Assembly (NCBI GenBank): GCA_000165345.1
Contig: CM000435.1
Span: 288,001-352,000, forward strand
Reading direction: 5' to 3'
Length of the DNA stretch: 64,000 nucleotides
Position numbers: made by a program. The first letter of the stretch is position 1, and each line of letters starts with the position of its first letter. Shown in pieces: positions 24,401-30,400 of the stretch.

Positions 24401-27400
24401 GAGTTTTATAGTTGGTGATATGATCTTTTCTATATGTAAAGATTGGAGCAGATTTAAGGTTATTCTCCCAATCATCTTTAGCCATTTTCATGCTATTCAG
24501 AGCATATCTATAATAGTCCTCAGCAATTCTATATTCACTTGAATTAGGATGGGCGCCTAAAATTCGCATTTCAGAAAGTTTCTTTTGTGCCATAAAGTAG
24601 GTAAATATTGACACTTGTAAAGCCTCTCTAGACTTTCTGACCAATTCAGACCCTCTCTCTATGTCTAATCTTGTGTAATCATCTCGGATTTTAGCAAAAG
24701 AATGTTTATACTGAATGGATTTGCCATGACTGGGTACATTTGAATTGAAAAGTATTGCCAAAATTATAAATAATAATAAAGGAAGTATATGGCAAAAAAT
24801 GTATTTGTAGCTATTCATTACTTTTCTAGTTACTATTTAACTCCATAATGAATTTTTTTCTTTAATTAAAAAATCAACATTGACTATTATTTGTTAATTG
24901 GCGCCAGTTTTTTTACATACTGCCGGTAAAATAATTTTTGTATCATAATAAAGAAAAAAACTGAAATAGTTTGGCGCCACATGGCACAAATTGACCAGCC
25001 ATCATAATAATCAAAAGAGAGGCAAAAAAAAAATTGGAAGGGTTGAAGCTGGAAAATAAGAAGTGATGCATTTGAAGGAGTTTATATTGAGCTTGGATGA
25101 TGTGAGAGCATTGGTTGAAAGAAAGCTTGAAAGAAATAGAGAGTTTAAGCCAAAAATAAGCTTTATTAAGCATTTAGCTTCTTATTCTGTAACGATACCA
25201 TCATTAACAAAAATAAGCGATGAAGCTCTAAAGATAGCAAAGAAAGATGGGAATGAAAAAGCAATATATATGGACACTATTATAGTGCCAGCACTTCCTA
25301 GATCATTAAAGAGAGAGGATAATTTGAGTAGTTTGCAGTGTAGATTTTCTTACTCTCAAAAGCCATGCTCAATTTCTCCAACAACGCATTATGATTTATT
25401 GAGCAATATTTTTGGTTACGAAAATTCTCAGGACGCTAATATTTTTGCAGATAGATTTTGTTTAAGAAGACTAATAGACTTCTCACTTGGTTCTATAAGC
25501 TCAGAAAATGCAGATATTATGGTTTCAACCAAGTTGAGAATTGATGATAATGGGGAGCTAGAAAGAATTTCTCCGATAAAAATGCTTCCAATTAATATAA
25601 CTGAGGGATTTCCAAGTGTCGGATTTCAATTTGAGACTTATTTAACACGAAGTGAAATAGGTCTGGGATTAAATCCAGATGCAACCTTAAAGATGGCAGA
25701 TTCTTGTTTTGTTGTGGATGAAATATCATTTGGAGATTTGAGGTTAATAAGAAGGTGTGAAATTGATGCAGTAAGTAAACGTCATGTATATGGAGATTCT
25801 AAAGAAAGAAGTAAACAAGAAGAATATAAAAATAGTTTGTGCCATAAGAGTTGGGAGCAAAAGATTTATAATACGGATACAGAATTTATGGAAAGGAGAA
25901 TGAGCCCTCCTTGTAGAGTGTTTTTGTCTGATAATTTTAAATCTTCAAAATTGTCCCCTGAAAATAGGGTTGAAATTAAATCTATTTCATGTAGAAATAC
26001 TCACAATTTTTCTTGGGTTTCAGTATATTTTCAGATGCTCATTGGCTCCACCCCAATTTTGATCAGGGGTTGTCATAATAGAGGATTCTTTACACAAAGG
26101 TCTATAACATCTTTTAATTTAGACCAGGTTAAAGAATTTTCAGAAAAGGAGTTAACTGCACGCAAGATACCTAATTTAGATTTCTCAGAATCAAATTGGG
26201 ATACAATTACATCAGCTATTGCATTTTCAGAGGCGATACTTACGTATATTTCCAATGATTTATTGGAATTGATTGGTTCATATTTATTTAAGGAAAATGG
26301 CCCTGGTGACCATTTTGTTAACTTTACCATTAAAAAGAAAGAAAACAATATAATTTTTCAAATATTAAATCCAAACGAAAATTTACCAAATATTGCTGGC
26401 CCAATTAATTATTGGAATGATTATCTCTCTAACAAATAATTAAAATGCCACGTCATTTTAAACATTTTTGCATGTACTGCGCATGCAAACATTATTTATT
26501 AAACACGTAATGTGGGGATGGGAAAAATTGCATGCATGTCAAAAAAACTGTAATAAAAATCATCCCAGACCTCATAGGTTTTTGAAAAGATTAAATTAGT
26601 AATTTTATGTTAGTAGAAAACTTCTATATATTTTTATTTATTTATTAATTATTATTCTTTCATAAATAATTTTGAAAAAATTGTTAAGTTAGTTAAATGA
26701 TAATATCATGAATATTGAAGATAAGTCAGGAAATAAACTTAAGAAGAAAATAAATATTTTATTTGAAAGATTATTTTCAAATGATGGGATTTCTCATATA
26801 TATTTGTTACTAGTAATCATTCTATTGGTAAATTTGGGAATTGGATTATTTTTCTGTGGCCGTAATTTGAACAAACAAAGTGAGTTAATTTCAAGTTCTA
26901 TATTTGATATAAACATTAATTTTCCAAAGGGGGATAAGGATACAAATAATAATAACTCAGTTTATGTGCCAAGGGATGAAATTTTGAACCAAAATAAACC
27001 TCAAGATTCCAAAAGTACAACTACTACAACTACAACCAAAAAGGTTTCTACTGTTATAACTGCTAGTACAACAACTACAACAACTAAGGTTGATACAAAA
27101 AATTACAATGTTCAAAGCCCAACAGATAATTCTATTCCAACTTGTCTATATTCAAGCAAATTTCCTACAAAATATGATTTAAATGGTCTATTATTTTGGA
27201 ATGTTTCTTCTGATACGTATATATATTGGGGATATCAGAACAAAACAGGAACTGTATATATTTTGGGAAACAATAAACAAATAAATAGTTCAGTACAACT
27301 AACTGATAATATATCAAGTAAATCAGATCTTGATCAACCAAAATTAATTGAGTTTAAAGAATCAAATATTGTAGATTCAAAAGTAAAGATCGGGCAGGTG

Positions 27401-30400
27401 GCAAGTAGTAAGGTTATTGCAATTGGTGAAAGAATTCTGCCTCCATACTGGTATATGAATTGGGTAGAACAAACCTCAACAAGATCTAAAGAAAGATTCA
27501 AGCCACTTTTTCAGCCTTGTCTTGGAAGTTTATATACTTATAGCAACAAAAATTTGCAAGGATTCTTTCAAGATCAAGGTGTGGTTTATATGTGCGGTTT
27601 CAAGAGCTATACAGTAGAAAAAGACTTGATAGAGTTAAAAAATACTCCCTTTATCAAGTTAAAAACAAATATTCAAGGTAAGTTTACGAAATGAAATAAG
27701 AATTTTGTTATTTAAAAAAAAAAAAAAAAAAAAAAACCCTTTAATTCAATTTTTATAGATAATTATTTGAGTCTTGTGAAGAGCAGATCTAAAAATAGAA
27801 TCTATAGATTAATGATCATTAAATGTCAAGAAAAACAAGGAAATTATAAATATGTGGTAACATACTCTTCAAATATTAGTAGATCTATAAAAGAAGAAGA
27901 TTGTGAAGAAAATCATGATTCTTGGCTAATGTATAAATCTGGGGGATCTTTGTTCACAGTTAGTAAGGAAGGCTCAGGAGACTGGCAGATGCGTACAGAA
28001 ACTGGCAAATTTGAGTCTTTAACGGAGACAGGTGAATTAAAGAAAGAGCCGTGTTTTTCAAGTTGGTGGACTACTTATGGTGGTGTAACATCAAAACAAT
28101 ACGTACCATCAACATAGAAGAATAATAGAAGTTATGAACTACAAAAATTAAAAAGAAAGATAAACATAAGGAGAGAATTATTTAAATATTAATTTGTAGA
28201 ATTCAAGGCTTAAATGAAAAATTTTAGGTATTTTACGGGTAATAGATAGATCACACAAAGCGTATAGTAATTTTGGCACACATAAAATAAATGGCAAATA
28301 TAAGATCAGGAAGATAAAGGAACAATTGGGAAGAATAATATTAAAGAAGAGCAATTAAGAGTTGAAAAATGACAGTAGCTACCTCAAGCAGGAGGAATTC
28401 GAGGAGATCTAGCTTATCTTCAGAATCTAGCTTGACTAGCCATACATCCTCAACAAAGCCAAAAAACTCTTATATTCAAAAGAATTCCTCAGTATCAGGG
28501 GGTAATGGCACATCTCACAATTGTTATAGCCATAAAGGGAGATCTGGAAGTGGTTTTGGTTCCAGTTCTTCGTATGAAAATAGAGCCTATCTTGTATCGG
28601 GAGGAGGTTCTTGTATTGGGAATAATACTAGTATGGGTAATGCTAATGGAAGTTTATTAGCACCAAATGTTCAATTGGATAATTTACCCTCAGAGAGAGT
28701 GGGGAATGGTTCCCCTAATTGGGCACTAAGTGCAGATGTTTGCAGCTTAAAAGATTTTAAGGAACTCATAGAATGTAAAAATGAGCATGCAGAGTCTGTT
28801 TTAAGAAAGTATTCTGGTATTAAAAGTGTGAATGGTGGGAGAGGAATTAGACAGGTTCTAGCTTCAATTGTACGTGGATCGCGTACATCAAAGAATCGAA
28901 GTTCATCAGTAGATTCAGGATCGTGTGGGATGGTATCCTCTTCTACTTCAACAACAACATCTTCTGCAGCATTGGTTTCAAATTTGAATCGCAAAAATAC
29001 AACTGGAGGAGATATAAATAATACGAGAATAAAGATTGAAGATAGCATTGATGGAAATGGTACTATTATTAATGATAATAATGGTAGCAGCACTAGCAAT
29101 AGAGAATGTAATATATTAACAGGACAACCCATTCAAAAAGCAATTCTTACTCAGAGAGATATTATGGAATTAAGAGGAAAAATAGATAAAGTATTATCAA
29201 CAGAAGATAGTTTTGTAAGATCAGCACTACAATCTTTTCAACAATTTGATTTTGATGGAGATGGAAACTTAACAATTGAAGAATTATTAGATTTATTAAC
29301 AACATTAGGAGAACATTTGGCATTACCTCCAATAAATAGAAAAGTTGTTGCAAATGAAATAAGTATACGTTTGAATTCAAAGTTAACAGTTGATAGTAGT
29401 GCATCAGAGAGCAAAATGTTGATAAGTTTTCCATTCTTTCTCAAGTATTACTTAAGTGTATTAACAACAATTAGACAAAAACATTTCAGTTCTGTGAAAA
29501 TTAATGGAGAATTACAACAGAATAAAGCAATACGTAAGCATTTAGTACATGAAGATGATATTAATGATTTATATACATTTCATTATCAGTTAGGAACAGG
29601 AACTTATGGAGAAGTATTTCTTGTAACTGAAAATTATACAAGACAAAGAAGAGTGTGTAAAATTGTGGATAAAGTCAAATGTCGTAGGAAATTGGATGAA
29701 ATTGATCACGAGGTTGAAATTTTAAAGCAATTAGATCATCCTGGCCTTGTACATATTTACGAAGTTTACGAGGATAGACTAAATTTATATTTTATATTGG
29801 AATTTTGTGCTGGAGGGAATTTATTTCACTCTCTACAAGATGCAATTCAATCAGGATTTCGATTTTCTGAATTTCATGTTTCACGAATAATTCAACAAAT
29901 ACTCTTGGCAATACGTTATTTGCACTTGAAGAGGGTAGTACACAAGAATTTGAAGCCTCAGAATATACTCTTAACTAACTCTTTCGGGAGTGGAAATACC
30001 TCAGTTAAGCTCGTTGATTTTGGACTTGCTGAAATTTTTTCATCAGATGAAATAAATCTTCCAGAACTAACTACTTCAAATGTTTCTCCTTCACATTTCC
30101 ATTCACCATTAAAATCCTTACCTCTCTCATCTTCCTCATCATCCTCCTATATAACCCAAGATCATATCAAAACCCATAATCAAGCTCAACCTCAAGCACA
30201 GATTCAAGGACATACACATAATACCTCCTTATCTTCTATTTCCAACCAAAATCGTGCATCTGAAGAAGGGTATTTGTTTGCTAGTGTGGACGAAGTCACC
30301 GGCATTCATAAGTCCAACTCAAGCCATAATTCAAGTCCAAGTTCAAACTCTAGCTTAGCTCAAAATCTTCACCAAGAAGAATCCTTAGCTTCATATCCAA

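Follow-up and report, generated by a model that had tools for sequence, protein, structure and literature searches.

Do two adjacent open reading frames on the forward strand of Cryptosporidium parvum chromosome 7 represent two genes or a single spliced one? In the 2004 Iowa II/RefSeq annotation they stand as two genes, cgd7_1240 (XP_628309.1, 328 amino acids) and cgd7_1250 (XP_628310.1, 101 amino acids). The initial annotation of the window (the whole 64-kb stretch of DNA analysed here) joined them into one mucin-like gene interrupted by an intron. ORF1 (26708..27694) starts with an ATG and encodes exactly the XP_628309.1 protein. The ORF2 frame opens only at 27716 and, as had been pointed out, has no ATG at its start; the first one occurs at 27812, where the cgd7_1250 model begins.

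Structure of the gene

The coordinates of ORF1, of the donor, of the acceptor and of the intron were all recomputed and agreed with those first proposed, with one exception: ORF1 was said to end two codons after the donor, and it actually runs for five (GKFTK) before its TGA stop (27692..27694). Exon 1 (26708..27677; 970 nt) comprises codons 1–323 and opens codon 324 with a single base. Around the donor the sequence reads AATATTCAAG|GTAAGT; CAAG|GTAAGT occupies 27674..27683, and 27677 is the final exon base. The intron (27678..27758; 81 nt, phase 1) contains the TGA that terminates the unspliced 328-amino acid reading, and its last base (27758) belongs to the acceptor TTTTTATAG|AT. Exon 2 (27759..28117) supplies the remainder of codon 324 (two bases), codons 325–442 and the stop codon. 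Removal of 27678..27758 generates the join ...ATATTCAAG^ATAATTATTTG... (...TNIQ|DNYLS... in the protein), and the proposed phase 1 fusion does keep the frame: the joined coding sequence is 1329 nt long and specifies 442 amino acids plus a stop, with no internal stop codon. One junction-spanning peptide of this 442-amino acid model is TNIQDNYLSLVK, and the C-terminus of the model is ...YVPST. Exon 1 is thus the old cgd7_1240 model minus the five-codon read-through tail, and exon 2 encloses the old cgd7_1250 model.

The 27678..27758 segment is an ordinary U2-type GT-AG intron. Its 3' part (CCCTTTAATTCAATTTTTATAG; 27737..27758) probably includes the branch-site region, for which TTTAAT/TTCAAT is only a weak candidate, and a pyrimidine-rich tract precedes the AG acceptor. 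These 22 nt are near-identical in C. parvum, C. hominis, C. tyzzeri and C. meleagridis; ACTAAC is found in the C. bovis and C. ryanae introns, and TACTAAT in that of one further Cryptosporidium species. In its length class, low GC content, GTAAGT donor and pyrimidine-rich tract, the intron resembles the short spliceosomal introns described for Cryptosporidium (PMC4637869). According to the same study, introns are present in ∼10.8% of C. parvum genes, with a mean length of 84–99 nt and a GC content of 22%, so that the genome is less intron-poor than had been assumed. A second intron of this kind was noted in the window (54312..54397; 86 nt, phase 1). The donor motif AGGTAAGT occurs twice in the 64-kb window versus 1.39 expected occurrences. 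Since the motif alone is not above chance level, the argument for splicing is drawn from the comparative data and from a join that preserves the frame.

Conservation of the intron and of the spliced product

Full-length orthologues were found in at least eight species. Those of C. meleagridis, C. ubiquitum, C. canis, C. ryanae and C. bovis (424–447 amino acids) span 99–100% of the query, and a C. andersoni orthologue was found as well. The annotated orthologue proteins could be reproduced only when one GT..AG intron was removed at the homologous codon, in phase 1. Altogether, a phase 1 intron at the same codon, with an identical GTAAGT donor hexamer (27678..27683 in C. parvum), is present in 11 out of 11 Cryptosporidium species, including C. 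andersoni. Its length is very variable: 81, 76 or 82 nt in C. parvum and 70, 72, 59, 116, 53, 52 and 88 nt in the other orthologues with annotated proteins, to which can be added, as read straight from the DNA, C. hominis (84 nt), C. tyzzeri (67 nt) and one further species (72 nt). Because these lengths (52–116 nt) differ in their remainder modulo 3, exon 2 can stay in frame across all of them only through splicing; in every species, the unspliced reading meets a stop codon inside the intron or just past it.

Sequence conservation follows the same boundaries. In comparison with C. ubiquitum, identity is 0.81–0.82 in the exons versus 0.57 in the intron. The GC content of the C. parvum gene is 34% in the exons versus 15% in the intron. 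The N-terminus encoded by exon 1 and the ...TNIQ|DNYLS... junction both align with the orthologues. Exon 2, which encodes the Cys/Trp C-terminal domain that had been proposed, is strongly conserved and has many invariant residues (C346, C372, W379, W399, C422, W426, W427 and YGGV). Synteny around the locus holds across all species. The gene models of the orthologues are predictions in their own right; the frame, conservation and stop analyses were made independently of them. On the basis of the full-length orthologues, the same-site intron, the conservation of exon 2, the deposited 442-amino acid product and the matching qPCR profiles (the last two are described below), we consider it almost certain that 26708..28117 (+ strand) is a single two-exon protein-coding gene, merging cgd7_1240 and cgd7_1250 and giving a 442-amino acid protein, as the initial annotation had suggested.

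The intronic A tract and possible intron retention

The intron contains an A23 homopolymer (27714..27736), which is the longest homopolymer of the 64-kb window, the runner-up being A12. As the initial annotation had implied in calling it slippage-prone, its length varies among assemblies and species: A18, A23 or A24 among C. parvum assemblies, T11A18 in C. hominis, A9 in C. tyzzeri and T6A8 in C. meleagridis. The tract is missing in more distant species. This unusually long and length-polymorphic A run, specific to the C. parvum/C. hominis lineage, is what sets the intron apart from other short Cryptosporidium introns.

Could the tract be related to intron retention? Under this reading there would be one gene, with regulated or leaky retention producing a 328-amino acid form that lacks the conserved C-terminal third, and the length of the A tract may tune splicing. 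Low-abundance Cryptosporidium transcripts are often incompletely spliced; moreover, an in-frame stop lies 14 nt into the intron and the long A tract, whose length differs by isolate and species, separates the donor from the branch region. However, most species are devoid of the tract, which therefore cannot be a conserved regulator, and conservation of the C-terminus argues that the functional form is the full-length one. We regard this reading as unlikely. A more specific version, even less probable in our view, is that the tract (A9 to A24 or more) is not neutral and affects how efficiently the intron is spliced or transcribed through, so that isolates would differ in their ratio of 442- to truncated 328-amino acid product. 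If true, it would amount to a phase-variation-like switch acting on a genus-specific surface glycoprotein of the late or sexual stages. In the favoured reading, the A23 tract is a slippage-prone mononucleotide repeat, neutral in effect, that occupies the variable central portion of the intron, and changes in its length leave the protein unaffected. It is a possible length marker, albeit a technically awkward one, and it breaks short-read assemblies (two short-read contigs terminate inside it).

Transcription and annotation of the locus

Transcription was assessed from the qPCR time courses available for cgd7_1240, cgd7_1250 and their neighbours (PMC3305300 supplement). The cgd7_1240 primer pair maps to exon 1 and the cgd7_1250 pair to exon 2 (the published primers include forward TGGGTAGAACAAACCTCAACAA at 27461 and a reverse primer binding 28065..28089). 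The two profiles have the same shape and magnitude (log Pearson r = 0.97). The correlation was r = −0.34 with the upstream neighbour cgd7_1230, and fairly high (r = 0.75–0.83) with the downstream neighbour cgd7_1260, which is ∼10-fold more abundant. Transcription occurs late (48–72 h in culture), suggestive of a late- or sexual-stage role.

All introns of the IOWA-ATCC annotation are described, in a general statement, as 100% supported by RNA-seq (PMC8744675); together with the matching qPCR, this constitutes indirect RNA support for the 27677^27759 junction. A 29-mer covering the spliced junction had no match in JGI metagenome contigs, a result that is uninformative. Searches of the full-text literature for cgd7_1240, cgd7_1250, CPATCC_003285 and cpbgf_7001250 returned no main-text mention, only cgd7_1260 (CpCDPK9) appearing, and the gene is absent from the supplements of Tandel 2019, the AP2-F paper and the oocyst-wall proteome.

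The two-gene reading, that is a 328-amino acid cgd7_1240 ending in ...GKFTK and an independent 101-amino acid cgd7_1250 initiated at the 27812 ATG, has the weight of existing records behind it. The two models stand in GenBank and were carried into later records (WKS78805.1, KAL5367433.1, C. tyzzeri TRY50485.1/TRY50486.1 and C. hominis CUV07102.1/CUV07103.1), and the RNA-seq-based reannotation of 2015 kept both identifiers as separate entries (PMC4637869). The latter choice implies that junction evidence was weak or overlooked there, which is consistent with very low expression. Nevertheless, we find the two-gene reading very improbable for the following reasons: (i) Met342, the start of the 101-amino acid model, is not conserved among orthologues, whereas residues 324–341, upstream of it, are; (ii) the ORF1 stop and the 27812 ATG are only 117 nt apart, and the gap is occupied by intron-like sequence; (iii) the GKFTK tail is a mere translation of the conserved GTAAGT donor and is not conserved as protein; (iv) full-length orthologues exist, as detailed above and (v) the abundance and profile measured by qPCR are equal for both old models. 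Hardly credible at all is the idea that there is no intron and that a length error in a coding poly-Lys homopolymer breaks one continuous ORF: homopolymer lengths are unreliable, as the A18, A23 and A24 versions and the two truncated contigs illustrate, but the sequence effectively refutes this explanation since the ORF1-frame stop (TGA, 27692) lies before the tract, an ORF2-frame stop (27713) lies immediately before it, no indel within the tract fuses the frames without crossing stops, and species without the tract are split at the identical codon, with a canonical GT..AG.

The single spliced gene was presented as a gene-model correction. It is not a new one: merged models are already public, although RefSeq Iowa II and several annotations derived from it are still split. 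The 442-amino acid spliced product is 100% identical to QOY40437.1 (CPATCC_003285/CPATCC_0006980, IOWA-ATCC) and WRK33290.1 (cpbgf_7001250, BGF), whose gene model is that of the proposed join and whose protein does not differ from it in any way. Merged models are on record for C. hominis (442 amino acids; OLQ17795.1 and PPA64244.1), C. meleagridis and other species, and for C. parvum in the 2022 reannotation. In contrast, the 2004 annotation of the same locus has two models, a spurious GKFTK tail and no residues 324–341. The joined gene model is correct but ordinary, and already known. The split RefSeq models are wrong, yet they were propagated into annotations that postdate the correction. 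The 442-amino acid model is preferable for qPCR panels, knock-outs, proteomics databases and dN/dS tables listing cgd7_1250, although the practical value of this is limited.

Features of the predicted protein

The product was initially described as having a signal anchor, and a single hydrophobic segment compatible with that prediction is indeed present at residues 31–49 (IYLLLVIILLVNLGIGLFF; 26798..26854). It is the top Kyte–Doolittle window of 19 residues (mean 2.79), it is helical in the AlphaFold2 model and it contains, or is close to, four invariant residues (G44, G46, L47 and C50). Lys and Arg residues are biased towards its N-terminal side, residues 1–30 having 6 of them and the 15 positions that follow the segment having 2. 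On its C-terminal side are found six invariant cysteines (146, 271, 296, 346, 372 and 422) and two invariant sequons, N165 (NVS) and N178 (NKT). Judging from these sequence features, namely an N-terminal hydrophobic segment, the charge bias, and Cys residues and sequons in the C-terminal part, the protein would be a type II (N-in/C-out) single-pass membrane glycoprotein. A short cytosolic N-terminus would be followed by the signal anchor or transmembrane helix, then by a variable stalk, rich in Thr within the C. parvum clade, where it would probably be O-glycosylated. The remainder would form a conserved, probably beta-rich ectodomain of ∼300 amino acids, with the six conserved cysteines and putative N-glycosylation at the conserved sequons. 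The AlphaFold2 models obtained for the full-length protein (mean pLDDT 38) and for the ectodomain (8 sequences; pLDDT 53.6, pTM 0.46) were too poor to be trusted.

The stalk is the basis of the mucin-like label. Cryptosporidium mucin-like glycoproteins include gp900, gp40/15 and the CpMuc family. The likeness to these proteins lies in the probable entry into the secretory pathway and in poly-Thr runs, which are plausible substrates for ppGalNAc-transferases. A ppGalNAc-transferase T4 is encoded in the window (54218..56232). The Thr runs that had been reported do exist (27017..27085; T7 at residues 104–110 and T6 at residues 121–126). However, unlike in gp900, gp40/15 and CpMuc, they are limited to 7 and 6 residues within ∼30 amino acids and are not conserved genus-wide, and most of the protein consists of a conserved globular domain containing Cys and Trp, not of a mucin domain. 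The Thr-rich stretch is present in C. parvum, C. meleagridis and C. ubiquitum, partial in C. canis, gapped or non-Thr in C. felis, C. ryanae and C. bovis, and absent also in C. andersoni. As to composition, one 30-amino acid stretch of the 442 has a Ser/Thr content of 67%, which is neither an extended nor a conserved Ser/Thr domain. The mucin-like label is therefore weak, the stretch being a lineage-specific low-complexity stalk.

Similarity to other proteins was sought in several ways. A Pfam scan of 7 orthologues assigned the query to none of the named families, with only stray single-member matches at E-values of at least 0.0098, and sequence and profile searches of the PDB gave no match at E ≤ 10. 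A profile search of 1.84 billion representatives retrieved six sequences, none of which points beyond the Cryptosporidium family: three orthologues from Cryptosporidium that had been identified before, the one from C. andersoni, and two fragments left unplaced. This search thus offers no distant homologue from which a function could be borrowed. The locus thus encodes a genus-conserved, genus-restricted, late-expressed and uncharacterised protein; as a tagging candidate, it is reasonable if not remarkable.

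One spliced gene at 26708..28117

The two ORFs at 26708..28117 almost certainly belong to one spliced gene, as the initial annotation proposed: the 442-aa product has been deposited, the site and phase of the intron are shared with orthologues, exon 2 is conserved and the qPCR profiles of both parts are alike. Region 26400..28500 was read, its ORFs were listed and the features recomputed. ORF1 (26708..27694, + strand, 328 aa, ATG start) contains the donor context AATATTCAAG|GTAAGT, which sets the last base of exon 1 at 27677; it continues for five codons (GKFTK) beyond this boundary, rather than the two initially reported. 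The intron (27678..27758, + strand) is exactly 81 nt long and ends at the acceptor TTTTTATAG|AT; its A23 (27714..27736) is the longest homopolymer of the 64-kb window, where the runner-up is A12. Since exon 1 (970 nt) equals 323 codons plus one nucleotide, the intron is in phase 1; joining exon 1 to 27759..28117 gives 1329 nt coding for 442 aa without an internal stop. Recomputation thus reproduced the proposed in-frame, phase-1 join. The downstream ORF (ORF2, 27767..28117) indeed lacks an ATG at its start, its frame being closed on the 5' side by a stop at 27713 and having its first ATG only at 27812. No minus-strand ORF of at least 60 aa was listed in 26400..28500.

The donor motif alone proves nothing, since the octamer AGGTAAGT is found twice in the window versus 1.39 expected and is not over-represented. 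Its other occurrence is the donor of a second short intron (54312..54397, + strand, 86 nt, phase 1, GTAAGT...TTTGTAG), in a gene (54218..56232, + strand) composed of a 31-codon exon 1 (54218..54311) and ORF 54433..56232. Splicing gives a 642-aa product that matches QOY40443.1 and WRK33296.1 exactly (2004 model: XP_628316.1, 545 aa); its cluster is represented by UDP-GalNAc:polypeptide N-acetylgalactosaminyltransferase T4 (AAQ95176.2), of the class that initiates mucin-type O-glycosylation. Elsewhere on the + strand, two pairs of adjacent or overlapping ORFs (87..821 and 758..1867; 45320..46007 and 46694..48457) have downstream members starting with TTG or GTG, not ATG; these pairs may represent additional multi-exon genes or changes of frame. 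An uninterrupted single ORF at 31876..44349 (- strand) encodes a giant protein of 4157 aa.

Conservation of the intron and of exon 2

Homology search returned full-length orthologues matching 99–100% of the 442-aa product, from C. meleagridis (437 aa, 90% identity to the spliced product), C. ubiquitum (446 aa, 73%), C. canis (424 aa, 60%), C. bovis (446 aa, 37%) and C. ryanae (447 aa, 36%). The C. felis model is shorter (377 aa), and a C. andersoni orthologue (379 aa) was added when 1.84 billion representatives were searched with a profile; this search yielded six sequences, none pointing beyond the Cryptosporidium family. All fetched loci share one gene order: a minus-strand gene of ~590–650 aa, a plus-strand gene of ~444–460 aa, the orthologue of the 442-aa gene and a CDPK. 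The last, directly 3' of the spliced gene and syntenic in every species examined, is here a 1041-aa kinase with EF-hands (28369..31494, + strand; cgd7_1260, CpCDPK9; PMC8875172). A 22,973-nt read-set contig (Logan SRR31860986) carries a syntenic Cryptosporidium locus with ~60% protein identity to C. parvum; its intron is GC-richer, with a TACTAAT branch-like motif and without an A tract.

GT..AG intervals whose removal reproduces the annotated protein were sought by brute force in each species. Exactly one was found per protein, always a phase-1 interval with a GTAAGT donor, located at the homologous codon (C. meleagridis, 70 nt; C. ubiquitum, 72; C. canis, 59; C. felis, 116; C. bovis, 53; C. 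ryanae, 52; C. andersoni, 88). Introns read from DNA measure 84 nt in C. hominis, 67 nt in C. tyzzeri and 72 nt in the SRR31860986 Cryptosporidium. Remainders of 0, 1 and 2 modulo 3 all occur among the species; therefore, only splicing holds exon 2 in frame in all of them. Unspliced reading meets a stop inside or just past the intron in every species compared. Identity is 0.94–0.96 in exons and 0.73 in the intron versus C. meleagridis, and 0.81–0.82 and 0.57 versus C. ubiquitum; GC content is 15% in the intron versus 34% in flanking exons.

Exon 2 is strongly conserved in the protein alignment (C346, C372, W379, GDW397–399, C422, WW426–427 and YGGV430–433). Residues 324–341, left out of the 101-aa model of ORF2, lie within the conserved stretch, and other species have T, A, G or H in place of Met342, where that model starts.

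Transcript data and annotation history

Published qPCR data covering 72 h (PMC3305300) were re-used for cgd7_1240, cgd7_1250 and their neighbours; primers in the supplement of that paper place cgd7_1240 on ORF1 and cgd7_1250 on ORF2. Both were at ~0 at 2–6 h, ~1–3e-7 at 12–36 h, ~1e-6 at 48 h and ~2–3e-6 at 72 h (log Pearson r = 0.97). The upstream neighbour cgd7_1230 was anticorrelated (r = −0.34), and the downstream cgd7_1260 was ~10-fold more abundant, peaking at 12 h. Indirectly, this match is the pattern expected of a single low-abundance late transcript. The spliced-junction 29-mer had no matches in metagenome contigs.

Exact-sequence look-up found the 442-aa product already in GenBank (QOY40437.1, C. 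parvum IOWA-ATCC; WRK33290.1, BGF, cpbgf_7001250), together with 442-aa C. hominis models (OLQ17795.1, PPA64244.1). The same cluster holds the split models of the 2004 Iowa II annotation (XP_628309.1/EAK90593.1, 328 aa; XP_628310.1/EAK90594.1, 101 aa). Later records copy the split: WKS78805.1/WKS78806.1 and KAL5367433.1/KAL5367434.1, those of C. hominis (CUV07102.1/CUV07103.1, KAL3126912.1/KAL3126913.1) and those of C. tyzzeri (TRY50485.1/TRY50486.1). In the RNA-seq reannotation of 2015, cgd7_1240 and cgd7_1250 were still two entries (PMC4637869 supplement); the reannotation of 2022, the source of QOY40437.1, reports RNA-seq support for 100% of its introns (PMC8744675). The gene model with its splice is already known, the corrected version having been public for several years, and is not the notable correction it was taken for. 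Some split 328- and 101-aa records have accession numbers far above those of the merged models; public annotations of the locus are inconsistent and the old error is still spreading. Nor is the intron notable for an intron-poor genome: it is ordinary, since C. parvum introns average 84–99 nt and 22% GC and are present in ~10.8% of genes (PMC4637869).

The intronic A tract

Within the C. parvum clade, the intron is conserved at its 5' end (GTAAGTTTAC) and over its 3' 22 nt (CCCTTTAATTCAATTTTTATAG); the A tract sits in the middle part, which is not conserved. It is A18 in three C. parvum read-set assemblies, A23 in this window, A24 in CP029786.1 (C. parvum) and at least 24 in a contig ending inside it; the equivalents are T11A18 in C. 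hominis (two independent assemblies agree), A9 in C. tyzzeri and T6A8 in C. meleagridis, with no tract in more distant species. These lengths mark the tract as an unstable mononucleotide repeat specific to one lineage, slippage-prone as initially noted. Since splicing removes the sequence, its indels (introns of 76, 81 and 82 nt) are tolerated. Two short-read contigs (from SRR31305056 and SRR29134127) stop at the equivalent of 27714..27736; the tract is probably an assembly breakpoint and the reason for both ends. It could also, through internal oligo-dT priming, mimic a 3' end after ORF1.

Features of the protein product

The product has a single strong hydrophobic segment (residues 31–49, KD 2.79), with K and R commoner before it than after, in agreement with the proposed signal anchor. 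Poly-Thr runs are present (T7, 104–110; T6, 121–126), but 'mucin-like' overstates two short, non-conserved runs, which are missing from the orthologues of C. felis, C. ryanae, C. bovis and C. andersoni. A conserved region of ~300 aa comes next, in which six Cys and the sequon positions N165 and N178 are invariant. We infer that the product is a type II membrane glycoprotein whose stalk is variable, and possibly O-glycosylated, and whose ectodomain is beta-rich. Pfam gave no family and PDB no relative for the product; AF2 models were poor (pLDDT 38 and 53.6) and no fold was assigned. The late expression of the gene hints at a late or sexual-stage role, but it is missing from the sexual-stage and oocyst-wall lists searched. 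The mild interest that remains lies in the inconsistent annotation and in the polymorphic intronic A tract.
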